Below, one piece after another: positions 5,570 to 57,224 of a DNA stretch of 64,000 nucleotides (position 1 is the first letter of the stretch; every line of letters starts with the position of its first letter). The stretch is from an uncultured Gammaproteobacteria bacterium (GTDB lineage: Bacteria; Patescibacteriota; Patescibacteriia; Patescibacteriales; UBA12465): NCBI GenBank assembly GCA_964408775.1, contig CAYPAP010000001.1:289839-353838 (forward strand), given 5' to 3'. The translations under genes and the position numbers were made by a program. The notes under the pieces were generated by a model. It did not search any database. It saw nothing but the letters and a program-made list of their open reading frames with translations, and was not told the origin of the DNA.

Positions 5570-6276
5570 ATTTAAATAAATTTATCGCCGACAACAGCTC
5601 TTACTCCCGACGTCAGACAGAAGACTTAATTAGAAAAGGACTTGTAAAGATAAACGGAAAAACAGCCGAGCTAGGCCAAAAAATTAAACTTCAAGATGAA
5701 GTAGAGGTTAATGGCGAAAAAATAAACACTGACATTAAAAAGATTTATATAAAGTTAAATAAACCGGTGGGCTATGTTTGTAGTAATAGACTTTTTAAGG
5801 GAGAGAAAAATATTTTTTCCTTAGTCGATAGTGAAGAAAAACTATTCTCTATCGGACGACTAGACAAGGATAGTTGTGGTTTAATAATTCTAACAAACGA
5901 CGGCGACTTGACCTATAAACTAACTCATCCTAAATTTGAGCATCAAAAAACATATTTGGTAACTTTAAGGAAAGATTTTCACTTAAAAAACAATAATTTT
6001 ATAGAAGAACTGAAAAGTAAATTTAAAAAAGGTGTCGATATAAAAGAAAAAACCTTGGCTAGAGTCAAGGATATTGTTTTTTTGTCGGAGAATGAAATAA
6101 AGATTGTTTTAACTGAGGGCAAAAAAAGACAAATTAGAGAAATGTTTAGAGTCTTTAATTTAAGAATAGAAAGGCTCCAGAGAATAAATTTTGCTGGTGT
6201 TGGACTAGGATCATTAAGAGAGGGTGAATGGGAGCGCTTGAGTGAAGATGAGATTAAAAAATTAAATAAAATATAA
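5557..6276 (+). CDS. RsuA/RluB-family pseudouridine synthase
   Basis: N-terminal S4 domain plus the catalytic motif GRLDKDSCGLIILTNDG. Confidence 0.85.
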   Translation: MEKINLNKFIADNSSYSRRQTEDLIRKGLVKINGKTAELGQKIKLQDEVEVNGEKINTDIKKIYIKLNKPVGYVCSNRLFKGEKNIFSLVDSEEKLFSIGRLDKDSCGLIILTNDGDLTYKLTHPKFEHQKTYLVTLRKDFHLKNNNFIEELKSKFKKGVDIKEKTLARVKDIVFLSENEIKIVLTEGKKRQIREMFRVFNLRIERLQRINFAGVGLGSLREGEWERLSEDEIKKLNKI

Positions 6277-6291
6277 TATTAACTATTAGAG

Positions 6292-6349: not shown

Positions 6350-6433
6350 CTTTCCGCCAAACAAAAAACCTGAAATACTTCGGGTTTTTTGTTTGTTGAA
6401 ACTAAGAAGGAGAGATTCGAAAGCCGGTTTGTT

Positions 6434-7492
6434 TTATCTTTTCTTATATCTAGTCGTTCGACCAACACCAATCCGCTCAATCCACTTTAGCTGTAATAAT
6501 TTATTCAAGATTTGATTAATAGTCGGCCTAGGAATTTTGGTTGCTTGGGAAATTTCTAGTGGTGTCACTACCTTGTCTTGCTTATCAATGTATGTCCAAA
6601 CAATATCTTGCTGAGGTGATAATAATTTTGACGCTTCTTTATGAGAAATAATATCAATTGCACGTTCTGATTGTTCTAAAACAATCTTTAAGAAAAAAGT
6701 TAGCCAAGCGCTAATGTCTTCCTTATTAGTTCTTAAAGTCTTTTGACTAGCTCTTAGGGCAATATAATACTCAGGTTTATTATCTTCAATTAATTTTTCC
6801 TGTGAAACGTAAGGCATATATTCATAGCCGTGTTGCAACATCAGAAGATTACTTAAGATACGAGAAAGACGACCGTTACCGTCAGCAAAGGGGTGAATAT
6901 GCAAAAATTCTACCAGAAAATTTCCGATGATAATTAAAGGATGAGCTGATTTTTCTAAAAAAACTGTCTGAGTGCGCTCCACTAATTCCTGCACTTCTTT
7001 TGGTGTTAACCAAGGAGCAGTCGTGTCAAATAATATTTCTATCGGTTTACCAGTTGGTGACACCATCGCCACTTTGTTTTCATCTTTTTTATGTTCACCA
7101 CGATGTAGTTCATCTTTTTCGGAATACTTTAACAGTTCACGGTGAAAAAACTTAATAGTTCTCTCAGCGAAGGGAATTGATTGATATGATTCAAACACAT
7201 TTTTTAATAAATCAAAATATCCGCACACTTCTTGTTTGTCGCGGTCTTTAAATTTTTGAAGAGATAGCCCCCGCATCAATCTCTCCACATCTTTATCAGA
7301 TAACTGTGAACCCTCAATGCGGGTTGAAGCACCGGTTGAAGTAATTAAAATAGATTTTTTCAAATTACTCAAAGTTTGTTGATCTAGTTTAGCACCATTT
7401 ATCCATTTACTTTTAAGCAAATCTATTTTATCGATTAATTCAACAATATTCTGAGGCAAATTATTTATTCTGTTGTCGAATTTATTATACAT
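6434..7492 (-). CDS. Fic/DOC family protein with C-terminal winged-helix domain
   Basis: Canonical Fic motif HIHPFADGNGRLSR. Fic_N-like STRIEGSQLS. Start moved to MYNKF at 7492. Confidence 0.85.
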   Translation of the reverse strand: MYNKFDNRINNLPQNIVELIDKIDLLKSKWINGAKLDQQTLSNLKKSILITSTGASTRIEGSQLSDKDVERLMRGLSLQKFKDRDKQEVCGYFDLLKNVFESYQSIPFAERTIKFFHRELLKYSEKDELHRGEHKKDENKVAMVSPTGKPIEILFDTTAPWLTPKEVQELVERTQTVFLEKSAHPLIIIGNFLVEFLHIHPFADGNGRLSRILSNLLMLQHGYEYMPYVSQEKLIEDNKPEYYIALRASQKTLRTNKEDISAWLTFFLKIVLEQSERAIDIISHKEASKLLSPQQDIVWTYIDKQDKVVTPLEISQATKIPRPTINQILNKLLQLKWIERIGVGRTTRYKKR

Positions 7493-14197: not shown

Positions 14198-14641
14198 CTA
14201 AGGAGTTCCACCAACATTAGGGGTTGTTGTGGTTTGAGATCCTCCAGGTAAATTTCTGAAAACAAAAGCTGTAATTGCATAAGCTAAAACCACAATAATC
14301 AACCCTATAACCGCATTCTTAATTCTACTCTGAGCTTTTTTAACTTGTTCTTCATTACCGCCGGCAGTCATCCACTGATAACCGCTAAATATCATCAAAA
14401 TAACAAAAATAACAGCTAAAAGAGATAGAAGAGTAAGAATAATAACACTAATAATTCCCTCTGCTTGAACAGATTGAGAAAATCCAGCTGAAGATATAAA
14501 GGCGCCCATTTGTCTCTCTCCAGAAGAGGCTACCTCCTCCGCAGGGTTACCTGCCAAAACATTATTAACCGAAAAACCGAAACTAAAAAAAACAGCTAAC
14601 AGAATTATTATTACAAATTTATTTTTAAAAAGTTTTTTCAT
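14198..14641 (-). CDS. TrbC/VirB2-like 'T4SS pilin' family small membrane protein (paralog 1)
   Basis: Signal peptide, variable region, TM1, conserved loop QWMTAGGNEEQVKKAQ, TM2 (AVIGLIIVVLAYAI). Confidence 0.75.
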   Translation of the reverse strand: MKKLFKNKFVIIILLAVFFSFGFSVNNVLAGNPAEEVASSGERQMGAFISSAGFSQSVQAEGIISVIILTLLSLLAVIFVILMIFSGYQWMTAGGNEEQVKKAQSRIKNAVIGLIIVVLAYAITAFVFRNLPGGSQTTTTPNVGGTP

Positions 14642-14645
14642 ATAA

Positions 14646-15047
14646 TTATTGTTGTATTCTATTTATAAAATATCTATCTATCAAACTCCAAATAGCATAG
14701 GCTGATAACGTTATAATTAATCCAATAATAGCGCTTTTAATTCTCTCCTGAGCTTTTTTAACTTTTTCCTCATTGCCACCAGCGGTCATCCATTGAACAC
14801 CACCAAAGATTATCAAGATTATAAAAAGAACACCCAAAATAGAAAGAACCACATTAGCCACTAAACCCAGACCACTAGCCAAGGAAGTTTCATCAGCAGA
14901 AGAATAACCACCGCTTTCGCCAACTTTTTCTAAACGACCCAAAATACCAGAAGAATCACTTTCATCAGCAAAAACTAAAAAGGGTAAACACAATAAAAAA
15001 ACTAAGAAAATTGCTGAAAGAAATGAGTTTATATTTTTTTTAACCAT
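14646..15047 (-). CDS. T4SS pilin-like protein (paralog 2)
   Basis: Same architecture. Loop motif is QWMTAGGNEEKVKKAQ. Confidence 0.75.
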   Translation of the reverse strand: MVKKNINSFLSAIFLVFLLCLPFLVFADESDSSGILGRLEKVGESGGYSSADETSLASGLGLVANVVLSILGVLFIILIIFGGVQWMTAGGNEEKVKKAQERIKSAIIGLIITLSAYAIWSLIDRYFINRIQQ

Positions 15048-15081
15048 AGAAAAATTATTTATTTAAATTAAATCCTAATAA

Positions 15082-15501
15082 TTAAACCCCGGAGGCCTGA
15101 TTAATAAACGCCCCTATTACAAAAATAGAAATGGCATAGGCTGTTAAGACTATTACTAACCCTATTATCGCCCTTCTAATAATACTTTGAGCCTTGCTTA
15201 TCTTTTCTTCATTTCCGCTAGCAGTCATCCACTGAATTCCTCCATAAATCATTAAAATAATGAAAAGAACACCTAGAATAGAGAGGACAACCTGGACTGC
15301 TGTTCCCACAACTGTTTCCGGAGTAGTGGTTCCACTGATATCATAACCCATTTGAGAAGCGGCGGCACCCAAGGCCTTGTCTTCACCAGATCCAAAGGCA
15401 TCTGAAAGATTAGCAGCCTTAGTACTGGAAATAAATAAAAAGCAAAACAAAAATATTATTAATAAAAAATGAATGGTTTTAAAATAATTATTTTTTTTCA
15501 T
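15082..15501 (-). CDS. T4SS pilin-like protein (paralog 3)
   Basis: Same architecture. Loop motif is QWMTASGNEEKISKAQ. Confidence 0.75.
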   Translation of the reverse strand: MKKNNYFKTIHFLLIIFLFCFLFISSTKAANLSDAFGSGEDKALGAAASQMGYDISGTTTPETVVGTAVQVVLSILGVLFIILMIYGGIQWMTASGNEEKISKAQSIIRRAIIGLVIVLTAYAISIFVIGAFINQASGV

Positions 15502-15523
15502 AAAAACAATCTAATATAAACAA

Positions 15524-15934
15524 TTATTGCAAAGAATCTGAAAAAGCTGTAACCAATAAAATACTAATGGCATAAGCTAACAAGACTACAGCTAAGCCAA
15601 TAATGGCCCTAGTAATAGTAGACTTGGCTCTCTCTAGTTTTTGTTCATTGCCCCCAGCAGTCATCCATAAAATCCCTCCTAATATTAACATGATCATAAA
15701 AAGAACTCCTACGAGAGACAAAACTATATTGACAATCACACCAGCCCCAGAATCCAGAGATCCGGCACTATTAAAAATTTTTTGACTAGTATGTCCTGTC
15801 CCCTTGGCTGTGGTTTCTACGCCAGTGCTCTCTAGAAAAGAAAAGGCATTACCAACCCCTATATTTAAAGAGAAAAATAAAAAAAAGATTAAAGGTAATA
15901 TAAGAATATAATTTTTAATCTTTTTTAAACTCAT
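15524..15934 (-). CDS. T4SS pilin-like protein (paralog 4)
   Basis: Same architecture. Loop motif is LWMTAGGNEQKLERAK. Confidence 0.75.
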   Translation of the reverse strand: MSLKKIKNYILILPLIFFLFFSLNIGVGNAFSFLESTGVETTAKGTGHTSQKIFNSAGSLDSGAGVIVNIVLSLVGVLFMIMLILGGILWMTAGGNEQKLERAKSTITRAIIGLAVVLLAYAISILLVTAFSDSLQ

Positions 15935-15947
15935 AGAAAATTAAATT

Positions 15948-16412
15948 TTAACAGTATAAACTAATATTTTCTAAAATATTTTTTGATGTTCCACCACCAT
16001 CAGTTCCTGCCGGATCGGAGCTGGTTAACTGTTCTCCAATAAAGGCGGTAATTGCATAAGCAGCTAGAACTATGATTAAACCAACAATTGCCTGAACAAT
16101 GAGACCACGTGCCTTTGCCACCTGTTGTTCGTTGCCTTGAGACAGCATCCATGTAAGACCTCCATAGATTATTAAGGCCATAAAAATAACCCCGATGAAA
16201 GACAGAATGGCCCCTATTAATATACCTAGTCGACTAGAAATAAAATTACCGGAGCCTTTGGAGTTATCAACATCTTCAACACTAAAAGCCTCCCCCAAGT
16301 CCCCCACCTGAACTGTTTCCCCCAGACCATAAGAAGCCTGGACTACAGCAAAAAAAGAAAAAAATAAAAAAACCACTAATAAAAAAATGATAAATTTATT
16401 TAATTTAAACAT
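15948..16412 (-). CDS. T4SS pilin-like protein (paralog 5, most divergent loop)
   Basis: Same architecture. Loop motif is TWMLSQGNEQQVAKAR. Confidence 0.7.
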   Translation of the reverse strand: MFKLNKFIIFLLVVFLFFSFFAVVQASYGLGETVQVGDLGEAFSVEDVDNSKGSGNFISSRLGILIGAILSFIGVIFMALIIYGGLTWMLSQGNEQQVAKARGLIVQAIVGLIIVLAAYAITAFIGEQLTSSDPAGTDGGGTSKNILENISLYC

Positions 16413-16546
16413 ATTTTATATTTTAATAGCAAAATATACGTCCATTGTTGTAGGCACTTTAATAATAAAACGCTCACAACGATGGTGCTTATTTCTAAAA
16501 ATAAGCACCGTACTTCCAAAATCGACTTTAGAAATAACACAAAGAA

Positions 16547-16942
16547 CTAGTTTCCGGTTGCAGACATTAATTCGTTTAGAACAAATGAAGCGATTCCCCA
16601 GGCGGCTAGAATTATAACCAAACCGATAACACCGGCTCCTAATAATTTTTTGGCCTCGGCCACTTTCTCTTCATTGCCTCCAGCGGTCATCCATTTAAAT
16701 CCACCCAAAAGAACGATAATAACGGCGATGATTCCCAATAAAGTTAGAACTACGTTAATAATTTGGGCTATCATGGTGCGAGGATCTTTTTGTCCCAAGA
16801 CAATCTCTTCTCCTCCTGCGGCCCCATTAATATAATTATAACCGAAATTATCTCCGGCTGCCTCTACTCCAGCAGGCAATACCATCAAAAACGGAGTTAA
16901 AAACAAAGAAACTATAAACAAAGAAATTATTTTTTTTCTCAT
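16547..16942 (-). CDS. T4SS pilin-like protein (paralog 6)
   Basis: Loop motif KWMTAGGNEEKVAEAK. Strong SD (GAAAGGTGGTGA) upstream. Confidence 0.8.
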   Translation of the reverse strand: MRKKIISLFIVSLFLTPFLMVLPAGVEAAGDNFGYNYINGAAGGEEIVLGQKDPRTMIAQIINVVLTLLGIIAVIIVLLGGFKWMTAGGNEEKVAEAKKLLGAGVIGLVIILAAWGIASFVLNELMSATGN

Positions 16943-17500
16943 AATTCACCACCTTTCTAGTTTTAAATTTAATAAATTATAATATTAAAATTATAACACA
17001 AAAGAACGGAAACGACAATAAAAACATTAATAAAAAGTGAGCACTAGTTTCCAGTAGCGTCCATTAATTCATTTAAGACAAACGAAGTTATTCCCCAGGC
17101 GGCTAGAATTATAACCAAACCGATAACACCGGCTCCTAATAATTTTTTGGCCTCGGCCACTTTCTCTTCATTGCCTCCAGCGGTCATCCATTTAAATCCA
17201 CCCAAAAGAACGATAATAACGGCGATGATTCCCAATAAAGTTAGAACTACGTTAATAATTTGGGCTATCATGGTGCGAGGATCTTTTTGTCCCAAGACAA
17301 TCTCTTCTCCTCCTGCGGCCCCATTAATATAATTATAACCGAAATTATCTCCGGCTGCCTCTACTCCAGCAGGCAATACCATCAAAAACGGAGTTAAAAA
17401 CAAAGAAACTATAAACAAAGAAATTATTTTTTTTCTCATAATTCACCACCTTTCTAGTTTTAAATTTAATAAATTATAATATTAAAATTATAACACAAAA
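16593..17500. repeat. tandem duplication, period 497 bp, with 411 bp identical by eye (16593-17003 = 17090-17500)
   Basis: Line-by-line comparison of the two copies. Identity covers the promoter, SD and most of the CDS, but stops about 45 nt before the stop codons. Confidence 0.85.
17044..17439 (-). CDS. T4SS pilin-like protein (paralog 7, near-identical to paralog 6)
   Basis: Differs from paralog 6 only in the last ~15 residues. Confidence 0.8.
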   Translation of the reverse strand: MRKKIISLFIVSLFLTPFLMVLPAGVEAAGDNFGYNYINGAAGGEEIVLGQKDPRTMIAQIINVVLTLLGIIAVIIVLLGGFKWMTAGGNEEKVAEAKKLLGAGVIGLVIILAAWGITSFVLNELMDATGN

Positions 17501-17533
17501 AAAGTAAACAACAATAAAAACAAACCAAAAAAG

Positions 17534-17929
17534 CTAGTTTCCGGTTGCGTTCATTAGTTCGTTCAGAACAAACGAGGTTATTCCCCAAGCAGCTAGAATT
17601 ATAACCAAACCGATAACGCCAGCTCCTAATAATTTTTTAGCCTCAGACACCTTGTCTTCATTGCCCCCGGCGGTCATCCATTTAAATCCACCCAAAAGGA
17701 CAATAACAACAGCAATAATACCAAGCAACGTTAAAACAACGTTGATAATCTGGGCTACCATAGTACGAGGATCTTTTTGTCCTAAAACTATGCCTTCTCC
17801 GGCTACCCCATTGCCATTTACATACCTTAATCCAAAAGGATCGGACGGCGTAGCCTCAGCTGGAAAAGCAATTAAAAATGGGGTTAAGAACAAAAAGAAT
17901 ACCAACAAAGAGATTATTTTTTTTTTCAT
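17534..17929 (-). CDS. T4SS pilin-like protein (paralog 8)
   Basis: Loop motif KWMTAGGNEDKVSEAK. Close relative of paralogs 6 and 7. Confidence 0.8.
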   Translation of the reverse strand: MKKKIISLLVFFLFLTPFLIAFPAEATPSDPFGLRYVNGNGVAGEGIVLGQKDPRTMVAQIINVVLTLLGIIAVVIVLLGGFKWMTAGGNEDKVSEAKKLLGAGVIGLVIILAAWGITSFVLNELMNATGN

Positions 17930-18066
17930 ACTTTAAAATTTTACTTTTAAAAAACTGCTATTAGAAATTAGTCTTAATTCAATATTTAACACACAATAAT
18001 TCTAACATATATTTCAAAAAAGTACAATTACTGTTATAATAAATACATAATTTAAAAATAATTACC

Positions 18067-19731
18067 ATGAAGAGAATAAAATTCAAGAACATTATAATTA
18101 TCTTTTTCTATTTAATATTCTTTCTATTATTGCTAAAGAGTTCCTTCTCATACTTGGATCCTGATTTGGGTTGGCACTTAAAAGCCGGGGAAGAGGCTCA
18201 TTTAAATAAAGCCGTTCCTTACGAAAATTATTACAACTATGTTTTTCCAGCCGAAGAAAATTTCTGGATAAATCACGAATGGCTATCAGACTACTTATTG
18301 TTTTTAGCTTATGATAATTGGGGCTATCCTTTTATAAACATATTTTTCGCCCTGCTTATTATATTAACCTTAGTAATATTAAATGGCTTTGTTAGTAAAA
18401 AGATAATAAAAGATGAGAGGTCTATTTATATTATATTAATAATAGAGGCTTTAGGTCTCAGGGCGATGCTACCTCATTTTGGCGTTAGAGTACAAGAAAT
18501 AAGTGTTTTATTTCTCCTCTTATTATTAATAATTGTTTTTAATTTCGAAAAGGGGGCTTTAAATAAAAATAATCGTTATTTTTTAGTATTAATATGGTTG
18601 ATCCCCCTCTTTTATTTATGGGCCAATTTACACGCTGGATTTTTATTAGGAATATTTACATTACTCTTTTACTTAGGAGTAAAAATAATTGAAAAAATTG
18701 TCTATAATTTTAAAGACAGAAAATTAGGAAGAACCCTGGAATCTTTCTTCAATCTAGAGAGCCGCCTTGGCAACAAAAACTTAAGGATATTTTTTGTTTT
18801 CTCTATTTTGGCTGTTGCCAGTACCACCCTAACTCCTTATGGCTTAAAATTGTTTGACTTTTTATCTTCCTATAAAAATACCGCCTATTTAAAAATAATA
18901 TCTGAGTGGCTACCTCAGTATTATTGGCCTCTGATGTATGAACAGATAGTATACATCGGACTAGTTTTAACTGGTTGGATAATTACTGTGTTTTTTTATA
19001 AAAATTATAAAAATAATCAACATGGAAAGGTTTTTCTAAGCCCCTGGATGCTGGCTTTAAATCTTTTTTTTATAATTTTAGCCATAAAATCGAAAAGGCA
19101 CTTTCCTCTGTTCTTTATAGTATCACTTCCATTTATTTCCAGCTTCTTTTATCATGAGTTTAAAGAGACATTATTGAAAGGAATAAAAAAAACAAATAAT
19201 ACTATAGACTGGTTTTTAAAAATATTTTTAATTAGTGTTTTTACTTGTACTACCTTGTTAATAGCTATAAATATTAATTTTGTTTATAATCCCTTTGATT
19301 ACTTTAATCAAAGCTACCCCCGAGACGCCACTAACTTTCTAAAAGAAAATCATGAAAAATATTTTTCAGCTAATATTTTTAATCACTATGCCTGGGGAGG
19401 ATATCTGATTCATGAATATCCAGAAAAAAAATTATTTATTGACGGACGCCTTCCCCAAAAAGAAATTAATAATCACAGCTTTGTAGAAGAATATGCTTTG
19501 TTTTTTTCAGAAGAAGAGGAAATCGTTACTAAAAAAATTGAAGAATATCAGATTAAATTATTTTTACTAGACAAACCAATAAAAATAAAAAAACGCTGGT
19601 TAGATAAAAAAATATTTGGCTTTAAAAATGACTATCTAGAGACAGAGAACCAGCTAATAAAATATTTAGACAATAACAATTTTAATAAAATCTATGAAGA
19701 CGAAATTAGTGTCATCTATTACCAAAAATAA
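18067..19731 (+). CDS. large polytopic membrane protein, possible GT-C-type glycosyltransferase
   Basis: 554 aa with many TM helices. Family not recognised with certainty. Confidence 0.5.
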   Translation: MKRIKFKNIIIIFFYLIFFLLLLKSSFSYLDPDLGWHLKAGEEAHLNKAVPYENYYNYVFPAEENFWINHEWLSDYLLFLAYDNWGYPFINIFFALLIILTLVILNGFVSKKIIKDERSIYIILIIEALGLRAMLPHFGVRVQEISVLFLLLLLIIVFNFEKGALNKNNRYFLVLIWLIPLFYLWANLHAGFLLGIFTLLFYLGVKIIEKIVYNFKDRKLGRTLESFFNLESRLGNKNLRIFFVFSILAVASTTLTPYGLKLFDFLSSYKNTAYLKIISEWLPQYYWPLMYEQIVYIGLVLTGWIITVFFYKNYKNNQHGKVFLSPWMLALNLFFIILAIKSKRHFPLFFIVSLPFISSFFYHEFKETLLKGIKKTNNTIDWFLKIFLISVFTCTTLLIAININFVYNPFDYFNQSYPRDATNFLKENHEKYFSANIFNHYAWGGYLIHEYPEKKLFIDGRLPQKEINNHSFVEEYALFFSEEEEIVTKKIEEYQIKLFLLDKPIKIKKRWLDKKIFGFKNDYLETENQLIKYLDNNNFNKIYEDEISVIYYQK

Positions 19732-21088
19732 AAAAAACAACAAAACATATCTTTTTATTGCCTTCTATTACTTATTGCTATTATTATTTTGTTTATTTTT
19801 TCATTATAGAAATTATTTAAACGCTGACGAGGGAGTAATTTTAAATGGAGCTTGGCATCTTTTTAACGGCTATCAATTATACTTTGACTTTTTTGAAATA
19901 ATAGGTCCAGGGAGCTTTTATCTTGTTTTTTGGGGTTTTAAAATATTTGGACCTCATTATTATGTTGCCAGTATAATAAGCATATTGGTTCTATGGGGTG
20001 GCTCTATTGGAATTTTTAAACTTCTAAATTTAATAAAAAAAGATATTTTCTTGAATTTTATAATTCCAATTTTATTTATAATTATTTTTATCGGTGATCC
20101 GATTATCAATCATAATTTATATAATATTTTTTTTATAATTTGGTCTTGCTATTTTTTGGCCCTGGGACTTAAAACAAATAAGAGCAAATATTTTGTCTGG
20201 GGCGGTTTTCTCGGAGGATTGGCTGTTGTTTTCTTACAACAAAAAGGATTATTGTTTTTGGGTTCAACTTTTTTATTTTTACTAATGGACATGATAAGAA
20301 ATAAATTTAAAAATTATAAAAATATTTCTATATATGTAGTCTTTTCTCTCTTGCCAATAACCTTAGTTCTTATAAATTGGCCTATAGAATTACTTTATTA
20401 TAATCTAATAAAGTTTCCCTCTTTAAATTACTGGGAAGCAAACAAAACCTCGTTTTTATTATTAATAATAGCCACTCTTTTCTTTTCGTATTATGCAATA
20501 AGATTAAAAAATAAATCCAAGATTACCGACTATCTCCTTTTTACTCAATTTTTTTTACTACTATCTGTAATCCCATTAGCAGATCTCTATCATATTTCAT
20601 TAGTAGTTTTTCCCCTACTAACTCTAACACCTTTTTTGTTTATAGCTTCAAAAAATTGGACTAAAATAATCCCTATTATATTTCTATTTTGGATGGCCAT
20701 TTATTCTTTGGGGGAAGCGATAACAAACTTCAAGCCATTCTATTTTTTCCCAAAAGATTTTATTGAATTTATAAGAGAAGAATGTCCTGATAAATATATT
20801 TATGTTGGACCGTTCTGCCCTGGTATTTATTTTGAAACGAAAAAAATAAATGCCAGCTCCTATGGATTGTTAATTGAAGGATATTCTACCACAGAACAAT
20901 TTGAAAAAGCGTTAGAAGAAATTAAAATAAACCAACCTTCCTGTATAATACTAAATTATAGCCAAAATACCAGCGAACACTTTCAACATCAAGGAAATAA
21001 TGTATTAGAAGAATACATTAGCAAAAACTATAGAATTAAGAAAACTTATTATGATAATCAAATCGTCATCTATAGCAACCGAGAATAA
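19694..21088 (+). CDS. large polytopic membrane protein
   Basis: 464 aa with many TM helices. The N-terminus MKTKLVSSITKNKK resembles that of the next gene. Confidence 0.5.
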   Translation: MKTKLVSSITKNKKNNKTYLFIAFYYLLLLLFCLFFHYRNYLNADEGVILNGAWHLFNGYQLYFDFFEIIGPGSFYLVFWGFKIFGPHYYVASIISILVLWGGSIGIFKLLNLIKKDIFLNFIIPILFIIIFIGDPIINHNLYNIFFIIWSCYFLALGLKTNKSKYFVWGGFLGGLAVVFLQQKGLLFLGSTFLFLLMDMIRNKFKNYKNISIYVVFSLLPITLVLINWPIELLYYNLIKFPSLNYWEANKTSFLLLIIATLFFSYYAIRLKNKSKITDYLLFTQFFLLLSVIPLADLYHISLVVFPLLTLTPFLFIASKNWTKIIPIIFLFWMAIYSLGEAITNFKPFYFFPKDFIEFIREECPDKYIYVGPFCPGIYFETKKINASSYGLLIEGYSTTEQFEKALEEIKINQPSCIILNYSQNTSEHFQHQGNNVLEEYISKNYRIKKTYYDNQIVIYSNRE

Positions 21089-21110
21089 AAATTTAATTTT
21101 GCCAAAGTTT

Positions 21111-22448
21111 ATGAAAACAAAATTATCATCACTTATCATCAAAAATAAAAATCTAATTTTACTGGGACTAATATATTTCTCTTTTTTATCTCTATTCTAT
21201 TTAGTAGAGCCAGTTAGAATAATAATATTTCAAGAAAGCTCTCAGACCCTAGGAGAGAATGTTGTTTTTTGGGCCGTGATTCTAAATCTTATTATTTTGT
21301 TTTTAACCCACCTATTATTTTTTAAAAAAATACAAAAAATTTCCTTCAAAAAACTTTTTATAGTAAGTGTAATAATAAACTTATTTTTATGGTTAGTTTG
21401 GCCTATTGCTTCATCAGATGTTTTTGGTTATATTTACCAAGGAAGAGTCTGGGCGATTTTCAAAGAAAACCCTTATTTAACTAGCTATTACAGCTTTCAA
21501 CATGATGTTTTCTTCAACAGTCTAAACAACATTTGGTCGGAATACACCTCGAGATATGGGCCAATTTTTACAATAATCAATAGCTTTTTTACCTTCTTAT
21601 TTAAAAACAATATTGTATTAAATTTATTTATCCTGAAATTTTTCTTTATAATAATTAATATTTTAAATGGATACTTAATTTATAAAATAACTAAAAACAA
21701 AAAAGCCTTTTATCTATACACACTTAACCCACTAATATTATTTGAATTTGCTATAAACGGGCACAACGATGTCTTATTTATATTCTTTATAGTATTGGCT
21801 ATGTTCTTTCTAGGTAAAAAAGGGCACGACTTAAAAAACTACTTAACCTCTTTTTTCTTATTAACACTGTCATTTCTGACAAAATTTATATCCGTTATCT
21901 TTTTACCAATATTCGCTCTGAAAGCGTTTATTAAAACAGATAAAAAAGCACTATTAATTTTTTACTTGCTTTTAATATTTTCTATTACCTTAATATTGTC
22001 ATATATTCCTTTTTCAAAAAAAATAATAGACATTGTTGGGGCTCCGCTGCCTCAGCTAAGCATGTTAAGCATAACTGCGTCTCCATTAATAATTTTGCTG
22101 ATACTAATTTCTATGCTCACAAAAAACTATCTACCACTAGAGTCTGTTATACCAATAGCAGGGGTTATCTTTGTTTTCTGTTATTTAATAATTTTGTTTG
22201 ATATAATCAAGAAAAGGAAGGTTTTAAAAAACAGTCAAAACAATCTTTCTTTCTTTTGGTATTTTGGCCTAGTTCTATTGCTTTTTTATCTCACATCAAT
22301 CCCCTGGCTAATGCCATGGTATTTCCCGTTATTAATAGCCTTGTTCTCAATAATATTTTCTAGCACCTCAAAAAAAGAGCGTTTTTCTCTGCTGGTAATA
22401 TTTGGGGCAACTTTTTATGGAATTATTAATTATTTAATTTTAAGATAA
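21111..22448 (+). CDS. large polytopic membrane protein, possible GT-C/DUF2029-like glycosyltransferase
   Basis: Start moved to MKTKLSSLIIKNK at 21111, after the upstream stop at 21088. Contains the motif SSDVFGYIYQGR...NPY. Confidence 0.5.
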   Translation: MKTKLSSLIIKNKNLILLGLIYFSFLSLFYLVEPVRIIIFQESSQTLGENVVFWAVILNLIILFLTHLLFFKKIQKISFKKLFIVSVIINLFLWLVWPIASSDVFGYIYQGRVWAIFKENPYLTSYYSFQHDVFFNSLNNIWSEYTSRYGPIFTIINSFFTFLFKNNIVLNLFILKFFFIIINILNGYLIYKITKNKKAFYLYTLNPLILFEFAINGHNDVLFIFFIVLAMFFLGKKGHDLKNYLTSFFLLTLSFLTKFISVIFLPIFALKAFIKTDKKALLIFYLLLIFSITLILSYIPFSKKIIDIVGAPLPQLSMLSITASPLIILLILISMLTKNYLPLESVIPIAGVIFVFCYLIILFDIIKKRKVLKNSQNNLSFFWYFGLVLLLFYLTSIPWLMPWYFPLLIALFSIIFSSTSKKERFSLLVIFGATFYGIINYLILR

Positions 22449-25949: not shown

Positions 25950-26342
25950 TTATTTTAATTCAACACCAGAAGTATCTCCATCCCAACTGAGGTTAAAGGC
26001 CTCCATCACAAAGTTAATAATTATATAGCTAGTAAAAACAAGAGCTAAGCCAATAACGGCTGCTATTAAAATATTTTTAGCCTTAGAGACTTTTTCAGAG
26101 TTTCCAGCTGAAATTAGCATTAAAAACCCACCAATAACAAACATTAAAAGCGCTAAAGACCCGACTATTCCTAAAATCAAACTAGACACATTTATTCCCA
26201 CTCCGACTAAGTCCTCTAACTCATAATTACCGCTTTCATATTTAGACCCTTGAGGGACTATTGAATTACTGGCAGAAACAAAACTAAAACTAAGAAGTGA
26301 AAAAACAATAACTATTGTTGCTATTTTAAAAAATTTTAACAT
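25950..26342 (-). CDS. T4SS pilin-like protein (dispersed ninth paralog)
   Basis: Signal peptide and two TM helices. Loop LMLISAGNSEKVSKAKN is homologous to the WMTAGGNEEK loop of the array. Confidence 0.65.
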   Translation of the reverse strand: MLKFFKIATIVIVFSLLSFSFVSASNSIVPQGSKYESGNYELEDLVGVGINVSSLILGIVGSLALLMFVIGGFLMLISAGNSEKVSKAKNILIAAVIGLALVFTSYIIINFVMEAFNLSWDGDTSGVELK

Positions 26343-32890: not shown

Positions 32891-33100
32891 TTATTTCTTT
32901 TTAGCTACTTTTTTCTTAGCTACTTTTTTCTTAGCTACTTTTTTCTTAGCTACTTTTTTCTTAGCTGCTGGTTTTTTGGCCACAGCCTTTTTAGTAACTT
33001 TTTTCTTAGCTACTTTCTTTTTAGCAACCGGTTTTTTAGCAACAACCTTTTTAGCTACTTTCTTTTTAGCTACTGGTTTCTTTTTTGCAACTTTTTTCAT
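32891..33100 (-). CDS. lysine/alanine-rich histone H1-like basic protein
   Basis: 69 aa of KKKVAKK-type repeats. A terminator hairpin (CACTAG/CTAGTG + T-run) lies downstream on the minus strand. The antisense FLATFF ORF is rejected. Confidence 0.6.
   Translation of the reverse strand: MKKVAKKKPVAKKKVAKKVVAKKPVAKKKVAKKKVTKKAVAKKPAAKKKVAKKKVAKKKVAKKKVAKKK
32901..32975. repeat. 15-bp tandem repeat (TTAGCTACTTTTTTC x4 plus degenerate copies) inside the K/A-rich CDS
   Basis: Read directly from the sequence. Encodes the pentapeptide periodicity. Confidence 0.85.
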
Positions 33101-45034: not shown

Positions 45035-46156
45035 TTATTGTTTTATTGGCATAACTAAATACAAAAAGTCATCTCCTTTTTCAGGTCTGATAACACATGG
45101 TGTATTATTATCAACAACTCCCAATACAATATTTTCTGAATTAATATTATTTAACCCCTCTAATAAATATTTATAATTAACAAACACCTCATTGTCCCCC
45201 CCCTTAATATTCGCATCTAGTTCAATAAAATTTTCTCCCGCCTGACTAGAGCTAGATGAAATAATTATTTTATTTTTTATAAAATTCAAATTAACATCAT
45301 TTATTCCTGTTTTAGAAAAAAGACCAGCCGCTTTAATGGCTCGCGAAAAAATATTTTTATTAATAATGATTTTTGTTTTTTCCTCTTTCGGTATTATCTG
45401 TTTATAGTCCGGATAGTTTCCAACTATTATTCTAGACCCAATTTTAGTTGATCCAATTGAAAAAAATATTTGGTTATTATTTAAATATAAATTAACCTCC
45501 CCCTCTCCCTCAATCTGTTCTTCGGTCTTAAAGTTATTCAAAATTCTAACCAACTCCTGAATTGTTCTAGCAGGGACAATAATAGTAAACTCTTCTTCAT
45601 TTTTATTTTTAATTTTTATTTTTTTCTCAGCCAAGCGATAACTATCTGTTCCAACCAGGGTTAACTCTCCTGACAAAAAAGAGAAATAAACCCCAGACAA
45701 CTCAACCCTACCATCATTACTAGAAACAGAAAAAACAGTACTAGACAAGGCCTCCCTAAAATCCTCAACTGCAAAAGAATAAAAACTTTTTTGATCAATT
45801 TTTGGAAGAACCGGAAAGTCTTCGGCTGATTGTCCCTTTATTCTTGTTTTATGATTTTTAGAATCAACCTTTAAATCATCTTCAACCCTTTCTATTTCAA
45901 CCTTGTCCTCAGATAAAAGATTTATATAATCACTCATAATTCTGGCATCAACCGTAAACTCTCCCTCTTTTTCAACCTTTCCCCTTAAAGAGCTTTCTAT
46001 GCTTATTTCTAGATTAGTAGAAATTAGTTCTATCCCTTCTTTTTTTGCTTTTATTAAAATATTATTTAGTATCGGTAAATTTATATTTTTAGTTGTTAAA
46101 TGTGAAACTATGGCTAGGCCCTGTTTTAAGTTTTCTTTCAAAATTATAAATTTCAT
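45035..46156 (-). CDS. dnaN: DNA polymerase III beta sliding clamp
   Basis: 373 aa. N-terminus MKFIILKENLKQGL....H....K..LPIL.NILI. Located directly downstream of dnaA. Confidence 0.9.
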   Translation of the reverse strand: MKFIILKENLKQGLAIVSHLTTKNINLPILNNILIKAKKEGIELISTNLEISIESSLRGKVEKEGEFTVDARIMSDYINLLSEDKVEIERVEDDLKVDSKNHKTRIKGQSAEDFPVLPKIDQKSFYSFAVEDFREALSSTVFSVSSNDGRVELSGVYFSFLSGELTLVGTDSYRLAEKKIKIKNKNEEEFTIIVPARTIQELVRILNNFKTEEQIEGEGEVNLYLNNNQIFFSIGSTKIGSRIIVGNYPDYKQIIPKEEKTKIIINKNIFSRAIKAAGLFSKTGINDVNLNFIKNKIIISSSSSQAGENFIELDANIKGGDNEVFVNYKYLLEGLNNINSENIVLGVVDNNTPCVIRPEKGDDFLYLVMPIKQ

Positions 46157-46450
46157 ATTTTTCTTTTATATTTATTTTATATTATATTAAATAATAATAG
46201 TAATAAGGGGTGGGGATATGTTTGTTATTTTTTACTTCGGCTTTTGTTTTATTGTATTAAGTCGACCTTTTGACTGTTTATAACTATGTTTAAATTTTCG
46301 GTAAAAACTTTTTGATTTGTTAATAACTTTTTGTTTTTAAAACTTATACACATTTTATAAAAAACGATTAATAGTTTTTGCACAGATTTTAAATTTTTTA
46401 TTAACTTAATATCAACCGTTTATTAACAACTATTTTTTCTTTTTTTATAA
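46157..46450. other. dnaA-dnaN intergenic region, candidate oriC part
   Basis: Very AT-rich 294-bp spacer with a one-mismatch DnaA box TTATACACA near 46344. Confidence 0.35.
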
Positions 46451-47818
46451 CTATAAAGAGCCATATAACAGCTGTTTTATAGACTGAATGTCTTGAACAA
46501 GTTTTTCGTTTTCGTCTTTTTCTTTGTTTATTTTATTAAAGGCGTGGATGGCGGTTGTATGGTCTCTTCCCCCTAGGGCTTCTCCTATTGTGGGATAAGA
46601 CGTTTTTAATTCTTCTCTCATTAAAAATATAGATATTTGTCTGGGAAATACTAACTCTTTTTTTCTTTTTTCTCCCATTAGGTCTTTTACACTTATATTA
46701 TAAAACTGGGCAACGCTCTCTATTATGTCTTTGGGGCTCATCGGTTTTATTTGATTGTTGTTTGTTAAATCATTTAAAATGGTTTTTACCATTTTTAATG
46801 TTGGTTTTAGATTATGAAATTCGTGATAGGCAATAATTTTATTCAAAGCCCCCTCTAATTCTCTAATATTATTTTGGATACTTTCAGCAATATATTTTAA
46901 AACTTCATCTTCTATTATGTAATTCTTTTCTTTAGCCTTCTTTTCTAATATAGCAATTTTTGTTTCAATATCTGGTCTTCCAACGTCTGCCACCATGCCA
47001 GACTCAAATCGAGAAATTAGCCTTTTTTCAATCGCTGGGATGGCCTTTGGTGGCCTGTCAGAAGATAATACTATTTGTTTATCTCCCTGCTGTAATTCAT
47101 TGAAGGTGTGAAAAAACTCTTCTTGAGTTCCGTCTTTTCCCCCCATAAACTGAACATCATCTACTAATAGTAGATCAACGTTTCGATATAGATTTTTAAA
47201 TTCTTTTGCTCGCCCTCCTCTTATAGAGTCTATATAATTATTTGTGAATTGTTCACTGGTTGTGTATAAAACTTTTTTGTTGTTTTTTACTAGCTCGTTT
47301 CCCATAGCTTGAAGCAAATGAGTTTTTCCTAGTCCTACACCCCCGTAAATAAATAAAGGGTTGTAAGCCTTGCCCGGGTTGCTAACAATTGCCTGACAAG
47401 CTGCGTAGGCTAGCTCGGTTGCCTTGCCCACCACAAAAGTAGAAAAGGAATATTTTGGGTTCAGACCAAATCGGCTAACGTTTATTTTATTTTCTTGTGA
47501 GCAGGCTTTTATTGGTTCTTCTTTTTTTTCATTTTTTTTACTTATATCCTTCTCGCTGCTTTCTTCTTTTTTTAGATTTACACTGAATTCTATTTCAGTA
47601 ATTTTTTTTTCAACAATTTTTTCTATAGAAGATTTAATGGCCTTGTAATATTTTTGCTCTAACCATCTTTTAGTGAATTCATTTGGCACCGATATAATAA
47701 CCTTATTATCCTCTAGGCAATAAATAAAAGTGTTTTTAAACCAAGTAATAAAGTTTACCCTGGAAATTCCAATTTCTAGTTCGCCTAATACGGCTTGCCA
47801 AATTTGATCATTGGTCAT
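46451..47818 (-). CDS. dnaA: chromosomal replication initiator DnaA
   Basis: Walker A GGVGLGKTHL, box VII, and a C-terminal DNA-binding domain (GGRDHTTAIHA). Confidence 0.95.
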   Translation of the reverse strand: MTNDQIWQAVLGELEIGISRVNFITWFKNTFIYCLEDNKVIISVPNEFTKRWLEQKYYKAIKSSIEKIVEKKITEIEFSVNLKKEESSEKDISKKNEKKEEPIKACSQENKINVSRFGLNPKYSFSTFVVGKATELAYAACQAIVSNPGKAYNPLFIYGGVGLGKTHLLQAMGNELVKNNKKVLYTTSEQFTNNYIDSIRGGRAKEFKNLYRNVDLLLVDDVQFMGGKDGTQEEFFHTFNELQQGDKQIVLSSDRPPKAIPAIEKRLISRFESGMVADVGRPDIETKIAILEKKAKEKNYIIEDEVLKYIAESIQNNIRELEGALNKIIAYHEFHNLKPTLKMVKTILNDLTNNNQIKPMSPKDIIESVAQFYNISVKDLMGEKRKKELVFPRQISIFLMREELKTSYPTIGEALGGRDHTTAIHAFNKINKEKDENEKLVQDIQSIKQLLYGSL

Positions 47819-51806: not shown

Positions 51807-51960
51807 TTTATTGTTTATTTTAGAAAATAAATGCGTTGTATTTTTATCTTTGTACACATAAAAGAACAAAGGTCTTAAGGGGGAATATAATAAGATATGT
51901 AGAAAGACCATGTTTAGAGGGATTAAGGCTTTTAAGGTTTTTATAATGTGGGGGTGATAA

Positions 51961-51992
51961 TTAAAAAATGTTCTACGTAGAACATTTTTTAA
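51961..51992. repeat. perfect palindrome, copy 3 (TTAAAAAATGTTCTACGTAGAACATTTTTTAA)
   Basis: Self-complementary over 32 bp. Confidence 0.9.
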
Positions 51993-52109
51993 TTTATTTT
52001 AAGAAAGAGAATTCTTTTTATTTTGGTTTCTATATATAGAAGGCTAAAGAGTTTTGAAAAAAGATAAGAATGGGACAAAATATAAATATATAGAAGGTTT
52101 TTTCCTAAA

Positions 52110-53186
52110 TTAGTCTAAAAGGCACCGCACAGCCAAGCCATTAGCTCGGCCGTAACTGTTCATGTATGCATTACTACTATCGAAGTAAAGGTAGCGCGAA
52201 TTCGTGCCATCTACGGAACTCGCCCAATAGCGGCCGCTAGAACCAACATCGTAGCGAACGCCCACCTGTCGGTGGCTGTAGCCGGCTAATGTAAGTTTTA
52301 AAGGTGTGGCAAAGGCTCCGGCTGAGTTGTGTGTTCCCCAGCTTACTCTTTCAGCTTCCCATTCTGCTTCGGTTGGTATTCTCCAGTCACTTGGACAGGG
52401 GTTATTAACTCCACTTGCTCCTTGCCATAGATTATTGTTTTCCGGACTACGCCAGTCATTAGGAGAACTTCCGTTAGTTATAAAATTAGCATGTCCTGGG
52501 GTGTCGGTGGTGGCCAATGTTGCTGTTGTAGCTGGAGCTGGACTTCTAACTTGATGCCCATCATCTAATCTGCCCCATTGGAATAGGTCACCATAGGCGG
52601 CGGCATCAGTGGAGGATATGGCTACTTGCGTGGCTCCGAGGTTGCGGTCTAACCAACATTCAGTAGTAGTTGCATTTAATACAGTTCCGTAGGTTACAGG
52701 AGATCCGTTGTATGTGAAAGTCACCGTGTATTCTCCGCACCTAGGAACGTGGACCACCCCTGAAGGGCTGGCCTCTTTTAATCCAGCTGACAGGCTAGCT
52801 ATAGCACCTCCTGTACAAAAATCTATGGTATAGGTCGATCCGTCAGCAGATGTATAGGTGTAAGTGTTATCACTTTCCTCACAGTCTCCGTCTGCTGGAG
52901 TAGGCGCTGTTGGGACAGTGGCCATATAGGTTGATCCTCCCGTGGCTATAGTACTATCTATTTCTCCAGTTAGCGGATATGCTCCGGTATCATTATAATA
53001 CAGTTCTAATGCTGTTTGCATTTGTCTAACATCAGCTATTCTTTTAGCGTCTCGAGCATTTTTTCTAGCATTTTGTAGGGACACCACAGCTAGAGTAGCC
53101 AAAATACCAATTATGGCGATTACTACTAATAGTTCAATTAGAGTAAAGGCTGGCTTATAAGATCTCTTGACCTTAAATTTAAACAT
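52110..53186 (-). CDS. type IV pilin-like protein fused to a FISUMP (Fibrobacter succinogenes major paralogous) domain
   Basis: Prepilin N-terminus [21 protein letters not shown]-terminal motifs CWLDRNLGA, YGDLFQWGR, WRIPTEAEWEA, GRYWASS and GLAVRCLLD match the FISUMP pattern. The C-terminal two-thirds are strongly GC-enriched. Confidence 0.8.
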   Translation of the reverse strand: MFKFKVKRSYKPAFTLIELLVVIAIIGILATLAVVSLQNARKNARDAKRIADVRQMQTALELYYNDTGAYPLTGEIDSTIATGGSTYMATVPTAPTPADGDCEESDNTYTYTSADGSTYTIDFCTGGAIASLSAGLKEASPSGVVHVPRCGEYTVTFTYNGSPVTYGTVLNATTTECWLDRNLGATQVAISSTDAAAYGDLFQWGRLDDGHQVRSPAPATTATLATTDTPGHANFITNGSSPNDWRSPENNNLWQGASGVNNPCPSDWRIPTEAEWEAERVSWGTHNSAGAFATPLKLTLAGYSHRQVGVRYDVGSSGRYWASSVDGTNSRYLYFDSSNAYMNSYGRANGLAVRCLLD

Positions 53187-56780: not shown

Positions 56781-57224
56781 ATGAAAAACAAAAAAACAGG
56801 CTTCACTTTAATTGAGTTATTGGTAGTTATTGCTATCATCGGAATATTAGCTACTCTTGCGGTTGTCTCCCTGCAAAATGCCAGAAAAAATGCTAGAGAT
56901 GCTAAAAGAGTTGCCGATGTTAGACAAATGCAAACAGCCCTAGAATTGTATTTTAATGACTGGCAAGAATATCCAGCTACTTTTACTGCTGGACAAATTG
57001 CTACTAGTAGCTCTGTTTATATGGCCACTGTTCCAACAGCTCCTACTCCGCATGATGGGACTGGTTGTACTGCGAGCAACAATGCTTATCAAAATAATTA
57101 TGAAACTCAATCAAGCAATGCCTCTTACACTATAGATTTTTGTTTAGGAGGAACCAGTGGAACAACCGAAGGACCTGCCTGTGCTACTCCGGCCGGGATC
57201 ATAACAGGAGAAGCCTGTATTTAG
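56781..57224 (+). CDS. type IV pilin-like protein (prepilin N-terminal methylation domain)
   Basis: [37 protein letters not shown]. About 60 N-terminal residues are nearly identical to those of 52110-53186. Terminator at 57252-57280. Confidence 0.85.

Follow-up and report, generated by a model that had tools for sequence, protein, structure and literature searches.

A candidate recent gene conversion at the head of a VirB2-like pilin gene array in an ultrasmall Patescibacteria bacterium

Described pilin arrays and the array studied here

Tandem arrays of VirB2-like type IV secretion system (T4SS) pilin genes have been surveyed across Patescibacteria, where 441 arrays of 2-11 genes showed a mean within-array identity of 25% and a maximum of 54% (Microb Genom 2025, PMC12102498). 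The survey found a pilin near virB4 in 1,135 of 1,948 assemblies, a proximity that is common and not required, and it counts such arrays with the small number of gene sets that have been reported as essential to a Patescibacterium in its host-dependent life (PMC12102498). Drawing on Anaplasma and Bartonella as analogues, it raised variation in antigens or in host range; the term 'gene conversion' does not occur in its text, and where 'recombination' appears, twice, other matters are meant (PMC12102498). In this study, we analysed a 64-kb stretch of DNA (64,000 nt of contig CAYPAP010000001.1, hereafter the window) that carries a tandem array of eight such genes. Two neighbouring genes near the head of the array, A and B, share an exact repeat of 411 nt, which is probably explained by recent non-reciprocal homologous recombination (gene conversion) within the array. 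The genes of the array are as follows.

14198-17929, minus strand: tandem array of eight VirB2-like T4SS pilin genes (PF18895 matches)
14198-14641, 14646-15047, 15082-15501, 15524-15934 and 15948-16412, minus strand: the five downstream genes of the array (PF18895)
16547-16942, minus strand: gene A, 131 amino acids (aa), putative conversion donor; identical protein in ENA, JGI and NCBI contigs
17044-17439, minus strand: gene B, 131 aa, putative conversion recipient, A-type in its body and B-type in its tail (GITSFVLNELMDATGN); encodes P0001
17534-17929, minus strand: gene C, 131 aa, first gene of the array, an apparently old paralog outside the event

Like the surveyed arrays, this one consists of small tandem pilins with a signal peptide and a two-helix hairpin, is chromosomal and lies near dnaA, as is often the case (PMC12102498). 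It is unlike them at its head, where the genes are 78-82% identical to each other (98.5% after the event) against the survey maximum of 54%. The virB2 families of Anaplasma, Ehrlichia and Bartonella are also tandem paralogs with strain-variable copy number (PMC3556328), and their diversity is concentrated at the mature N-terminal region and near the C-terminus, as it does among A, C and the allele B* described below. Those families, however, belong to Alphaproteobacteria with a diderm T4SS and animal hosts, where variation is tied to immune evasion or host tropism. The Patescibacteria proteins further differ from alphaproteobacterial VirB2 in falling below the PF04956 cut-off.

In the pilE/pilS system of Neisseria, the donors are silent and promoterless, a G-quadruplex (G4) 5' of pilE starts the process, and the exchange is frequent and diversifying. 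The window resembles this system in that a variable pilin segment appears to have been copied non-reciprocally, with conserved flanks as anchors and the donor unchanged. However, pilE encodes a type IV pilin and not a VirB2-like protein, and the partners in the window are complete genes: A, B, B* and C are all full-length open reading frames (ORFs) with an ATG. A and B share the same Shine-Dalgarno sequence and -10-like upstream element, with no silent cassette pattern, and no G4 motif was found on either strand of the window. With two alleles only, and with neither silent cassettes nor a G4 motif, the locus bears no sign of programmed variation.

The tufA/tufB genes and the rRNA operons undergo concerted evolution by RecA-dependent gene conversion, and homogenisation is favoured there because the copies must stay alike. 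They are the best mechanistic match to the window, showing patches of perfect identity in old paralogs with diverged homologous sequence at their bounds. They are unlike it in that the converted segment in the window is the part that normally differs between paralogs. The process proposed here is an ordinary one, concerted evolution through gene conversion, previously undescribed for this gene family.

We assigned the array to its family with Pfam profiles. Against PF18895 (T4SS_pilin; gathering cut-off 26.6 bits), seven of the eight genes scored above the cut-off, among them A (46.4 bits), B (46.6) and C (41.6), and the gene at 15948-16412 fell just below it at 24.9 bits; a ninth PF18895 gene, also above the cut-off, lies at 25950-26342. 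Against PF04956 (TrbC/VirB2; cut-off 27.9 bits) the scores were 20-23 bits, just under the cut-off. The genes had been called 'pilin-like' in the initial annotation, and pilins they are, of the VirB2-like type IV secretion kind (PF18895) and not type IV pilins. For A, an AlphaFold2 model based on 77 aligned sequences predicted helices at residues 2-20 (signal), 54-86 and 91-129, with a predicted local distance difference test score of about 90 over the hairpin and about 50 over residues 21-53, which are modelled as disordered. The model thus shows the predicted PF18895 architecture of an N-terminal signal helix followed by two long helices and a short loop, and the invariant WMTAGGNEE motif covers the end of helix 1 and the turn of the hairpin. 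A profile search of PDB sequences with the pilin gave no match at E ≤ 1, and Foldseek against the PDB gave none at E ≤ 0.001, the best being ATP synthase subunit c (E = 1.6). A helical hairpin is too generic a shape for these fold and sequence tests to inform on kinship with VirB2.

The exact repeat and the unconverted allele

The repeat, the blocks within it and a nearby promoter-like site have these positions.

16593-17003 (strand not applicable): repeat copy 1, with codons 1-116 of A and a 61-nt 5' leader/promoter region
17090-17500 (strand not applicable): repeat copy 2, maximal extent of the proposed conversion tract in B
17044-17089, minus strand: B-specific 3' tail of the coding sequence (CDS), the same in B and B*, with 11 differences from the A tail at 16547-16592
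17149-17419, minus strand: minimal conversion tract, to which the 71 columns of difference from the B* haplotype are confined
17090-17148, minus strand: f1, a 59-nt block (also at 16593-16651) in which A and B* were identical before the proposed event; 3'-side homology anchor
17420-17500, minus strand: f2, an 81-nt block (also at 16923-17003) in which A and B* were identical before the proposed event; 5'-side homology anchor
16990-17018, minus strand: promoter-like site 5' of A (TTGTCG, 17-nt spacer, TG-TATAAT), a consensus match only

A self-comparison of the window, shifted by 497 nt, showed a single unbroken exact run of 411 nt, 16593-17003 being the same as 17090-17500, free of the scattered differences that would have undone the identity first reported for these coordinates. 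It is the longest exact repeat of the window by eightfold; the runners-up measure 51 nt (within a short tandem repeat) and 29 nt, so that an origin by chance is excluded. The run spans the first 350 nt of each 396-nt CDS (codons 1-116 of 131) and takes in 61 nt 5' of each ATG, with the Shine-Dalgarno AAAGGTGGTGA and the TGTTATAAT element, an extent that agrees with the initial annotation (most of the CDS, the Shine-Dalgarno sequence and about 60 bp upstream). From the end of the run to the stop codons, A and B differ at 11 positions, about 8 of them synonymous and 3 non-synonymous by the Nei-Gojobori method, in line with the mostly synonymous differences noted earlier; the two proteins differ by two residues, A118T and S127D. 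Gene C had been described as a third copy diverged throughout, and its identity to A is indeed about 78% at both the nucleotide and the amino-acid level.

Past both ends of the run, the A and B units are still alignable yet diverged, in the CDS tail and in the intergenic spacers, so that 86 nt in each 497-nt period are diverged, on both sides of the exact run. Zero differences in 411 nt thus stand beside 11 in the adjoining 3' tail and diverged spacers. In a Sawyer-type permutation test on runs of concordant polymorphic sites, the A-B run was significant (P ≤ 5e-5).

The promoter-like site 5' of A has its -10 within the repeat and its -35 outside, and a promoter/terminator scan gave no excess of sites over shuffled controls. 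Gene C lacks the AAAGG(T/C)GGTGA Shine-Dalgarno sequence and leader that were found on A, B and both sister-species head genes (window 17929-17990 compared with L093 4440-4510); its ATG is preceded by TTTTAAAGT.

We then compared the window with a 298-kb MEGAHIT contig from another metagenome (ENA ERZ27252304:k141_46705), reached through the exact A and C proteins, over window positions 6547-64000 (57.4 kb). The two sequences differed in only two places and showed no isolated single-nucleotide polymorphism (SNP). The first difference comprises 71 alignment columns (59 substitutions and two 6-nt indels), all at 17149-17419 within B. In place of B, the ENA contig carries B*, a distinct 127-aa paralog with its own variable segment ATNDVFGLDFVKSGNNGLVLGE, whose last 47 nt and both intergenic flanks are the same as those of the window's B. 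The second is a 30-nt change of copy number at 32937-32966, in a repeat with a 15-nt period. This repeat (32901-33082) belongs to a 69-aa lysine-rich protein of the KKVAKKK type (32891-33100, minus strand), whose gene is two units (30 nt) longer in the window than in the ENA contig.

B* or fragments of it occur in at least five assemblies (ERZ27252304, ERZ27252296, ERZ27252295, JGI 3300033178 and a 92-kb JGI contig); in ERZ27252296 it stands on a 196-kb contig that has one additional SNP. We counted two alleles of B plus one SNP variant in at least six assemblies, and gene A was identical in the window, the ENA contig (L001) and every assembly seen. An exact look-up of the JGI short form P0122 gave no place on record. 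A scan of JGI contigs with the exact 51-nt B tail gave no match, in a collection that is evidently incomplete, as JGI contig L002 has that tail. B*-type variable regions were also found in related strains (for example P0008), and B* is therefore taken to be the older as well as the commoner state.

The array proteins vary chiefly in two places, the C-terminal tail and a stretch of about 30 residues that follows the signal peptide. Within the conserved hairpin, A, B* and C gave pairwise synonymous divergences (dS) of 0.64-0.99 (0.85 for A and C in the conserved part) and ratios of non-synonymous to synonymous divergence (dN/dS) of 0.03-0.05 by the Nei-Gojobori method; in the variable segment dN was 0.35-0.57. 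The 3' tails of A, B and C are nearly equidistant, with 36-38 of 47 aligned positions identical. These values indicate that A, B* and C are three old paralogs, and because of this age a stretch of 411 nt without a difference could not come from slow divergence.

A fresh tandem duplication, or one unequal crossover instead of a conversion patch, would also leave adjacent, direct copies that are perfectly identical over most of the 497-nt period, and a change of copy number by unequal crossover does occur in the sister species. However, duplication of a 497-nt unit should give 2 x 497 identical bases, whereas 86 nt in each period are diverged. A single crossover between B* and A would, from the three-gene layout, leave two or four head genes, and both haplotypes have three; unequal crossing-over, which the initial annotation had offered as one of two causes, therefore fails as the sole cause. 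We regard this origin as scarcely credible. The other proposal of the initial annotation, gene conversion rather than a fresh duplication, gained support from the comparison with related genomes, where the unconverted B* was found in an otherwise identical background, the same clone, with every SNP and indel column falling within B.

Conversion weighed against other origins

All 71 of the 71 differing columns lie in B and none in A, with no SNP elsewhere in 57 kb, and the replaced segment lies exactly between f1 and f2. Since A is unchanged and B keeps its own flanks, the direction of the proposed conversion is from A to B. The permutation signals for the A-B run and for the run shared by the B and B* tails (P ≤ 5e-5 for the latter as well) likewise mark the window's B as mosaic, its body being of A type and its tail of B type. 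Such a patch has two ends, so gene conversion or an equivalent double exchange between sister chromosomes is needed. At the protein level, the minimal tract corresponds to a portion of the signal peptide, to the mature pilin's hypervariable N-terminal segment and to helix 1. The tract would measure 271-411 nt, its true endpoints being hidden somewhere inside f1 and f2.

Because A and B* are already identical over f1 and f2, the edges of the repeat at 16592/16593 and 17003/17004 predate the event, and the sharp boundary, contrary to the first proposal, need not mark its breakpoint. Block f2, which comprises the initial 20 nt of the CDS together with the Shine-Dalgarno sequence and the extended -10-like element, is conserved in the sister species; its identity in A and B* may simply reflect selection. 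Block f1 carries a single SNP in one sample (L092). The permutation test on the unconverted trio A, B* and C showed no significant older conversion tract within the CDS, and with no tract signal among these three we do not claim f1 as the remnant of an older conversion.

The sequence of events may be pictured as follows. The ancestral array head would have held three old paralogs, C, B* and A, all complete genes encoding a signal peptide, then about 30 hypervariable residues and then a strongly conserved hairpin joined by the WMTAGGNEE loop. A break or a stalled replication fork in B* would have started the event, and RecA-type repair would have taken as its template the A copy at a distance of 497 nt, misaligned with B* either within one chromosome or between sisters. 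Strand exchange would have begun and ended within the identical blocks of 59 nt (3') and 81 nt (5'). The core of B*, with its whole hypervariable segment, would thereby have been replaced by a copy of the A core, leaving A unaltered, while B would have kept the final 46 nt of its own and the intergenic flank on either side. Of the three pilin variants one would have been lost, and two expressed-looking genes two residues apart would remain. The comparisons show the structure of the locus, both alleles, the A-to-B direction and the old age of the paralogs, whereas we infer that repair was of the RecA type, that the converted allele is biologically real and that the pilus may be affected.

The opposite direction would make an A-like B ancestral and have the B* core imported by transformation from an orthologue in another strain or species. 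Patescibacteria commonly carry competence genes, a ComM-like Mg-chelatase gene lies in the window, and the B*-like variable regions of related strains (P0008) mean that donors exist. B* is nevertheless found in at least five assemblies and the converted form in one. An import would also have to stop exactly at the limits of the A/B identity and leave flanks without a foreign SNP, whereas a donor of the A core lies 497 nt away in the same genome, which holds no donor of B*. This makes an imported B* very improbable.

An assembly artefact is a more serious possibility, though we consider it doubtful. The source genome would then carry B*, and the cores of A and B* would have been collapsed as a bubble of the de Bruijn graph. 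At k ≤ 59, the cores (271 nt in A, 259 nt in B*) both join f1 to f2 and resemble a strain-variant bubble; collapse onto the A branch would leave the 411-nt repeat with a loop via the 86-nt spacer, and one traversal of this loop would give the window sequence. Several observations point this way and weigh against a real conversion. Blocks f1 and f2 bound the replaced segment exactly, as bubble collapse would have it, and from A and B* cores set between identical flanks an assembler could yield the same sequence. The converted protein P0001 was found in one assembly only, on a single NCBI contig (431,656 bp) that is presumably the source of the window, and exact look-ups of the converted B and of the window's allele of the 69-aa repeat protein gave no further place. 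The sole other difference in 57 kb also sits in a repeat, so both are where assemblers err. The MEGAHIT k141 assemblies, whose final k exceeds both flanks and which are thus immune to such a collapse, all show B*. Logan contigs of SRR10872584 match the window at 100% identity, but none of them spans the repeat, where they break off (L006 ends at 17471). The proposed event, moreover, homogenises paralogs; it removes a variant, creates none and implies no functional role.

Other points speak against the artefact. The two cores are only about 74% identical and expected at equal depth, whereas common bubble-removal rules need high similarity or a clear imbalance of coverage. Both f1 and f2 fit within reads of 100-150 nt, which would thread B* correctly, and a perfect 411-nt repeat is harder to assemble than the B* haplotype, which leaves an assembler without incentive to produce it. 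Natural recombination at the homologous array head was, in addition, seen independently in the sister species. The initial caution about the assembly was justified; the likeliest artefact, however, is a collapsed A/B* bubble and not a collapsed copy number. The contig ends near the repeat (L004 starts exactly at 17003, L006 ends at 17471) are no evidence for it in other samples: both haplotypes predict them, since both hold an exact block of at least 81 nt that ends at 17003/17500. As a practical warning, graph assemblers may homogenise the cores of paralogs between short identical blocks, and near-identical paralogs in metagenome-assembled genomes (MAGs) need checks at the level of reads.

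Gene conversion from A to B is the origin that we favour. If the converted allele is real, the alleles before and after the event are both kept in natural populations of one clone, which would give a clean and datable case of concerted evolution in an uncultivated, genome-reduced bacterium, and would show a recombination machinery at work on a tract of 271-411 nt with anchors of 59 and 81 nt. The current description of these arrays is of uniformly very divergent genes; the locus shows that, in at least one lineage, the genes of the array head are far more alike and exchange sequence.

Related array heads and the genomic setting

In our own sample of 74 related loci with at least two pilins, the mean within-locus pilin identity was 33%. 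A pilin pair of at least 54% identity occurs at eight of the 74 loci, with a value above 95% in the window alone; the best-scoring pairs among these include the array-head gene. In the window, L007 and L008 the head paralogs group by genome, and in L011 and L013 by orthology, a mixture that fits either occasional homogenisation or independent duplication.

In the sister species, two head pilins are present in one assembly (L093 4507-5408, JGI 3300075907) versus one in another (L094 2742-3149, JGI 3300078335). The single gene is a hybrid of the two, with its junction within a 45-nt 5' stretch that is identical in both paralogs, a structure that bears the signature of unequal homologous recombination. 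In a more distant Patescibacterium (L061, CAYOKE010000002.1), the head genes 5709-6285 and 6362-6937 share 577 nt at 98% identity with an exact run of 382 nt. About 105 nt of this repeat belong to the divergent membrane-protein gene; the repeat does not reach the stop codons, and the C-terminal tails differ as in the window. Together with the grouping of head paralogs by genome, both cases speak, independently of the window, for recombination at array heads.

These cases hint, weakly, that array heads could be a recombination hotspot in which conserved 5' leader and helix-coding anchors move the surface-exposed variable cassette among expressed paralogs and alter copy number; we put this forward only as a long shot. 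The window event, the two-versus-one polymorphism of the sister species and the L061 pair would then be three snapshots of one process. A hotspot of this kind would give host-dependent epibionts a heritable and rapidly switching pilus repertoire for attachment to, or exchange with, different host strains.

The window is chromosomal: it holds dnaA and dnaN (45035-47818), ribosomal protein genes, SMC and nine tRNA genes, and the pilin array lies about 29 kb from dnaA. A Pfam search of the window's ORFs of at least 110 aa found no domain of virB4, virB6 or the coupling protein in the 64 kb. Among GTDB representative genomes, the closest loci belong to Patescibacteria MAGs (best amino-acid identity 79%), without the window's own species among the matches, and the nearest named relatives are Falkowbacteria and Magasanikbacteria MAGs. 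By these neighbouring loci in the GTDB scan, the organism is placed in the Patescibacteria (candidate phyla radiation, CPR), related to Falkowbacteria-like lineages.

Next to the array head stands one further conserved gene.

18067-19731, plus strand: polytopic membrane protein of 554 aa, divergent from the array head, with no Pfam match

A homologue of this protein occupies the same position at 45 of 79 related Patescibacteria loci. On its 3' side (19694-22448) lie membrane glycosyltransferase-like genes of the PMT_2-like and MptA_B families and a GT2 gene. The conserved linkage of these membrane and glycosyltransferase-like genes might reflect glycosylation or processing of the pilins.

Two N_methyl genes, encoding type IV pilin-like prepilins, are present at 52110-53186 (minus strand) and 56781-57224 (plus strand). 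With these genes, the organism encodes type IV pilus pilins as well as the VirB2-like array, which are distinct systems. Between a yidC-like gene and the convergent N_methyl gene, a perfect 36-nt palindrome, AATTAAAAAATGTTCTACGTAGAACATTTTTTAATT, at 51959-51994 is probably a bidirectional terminator.

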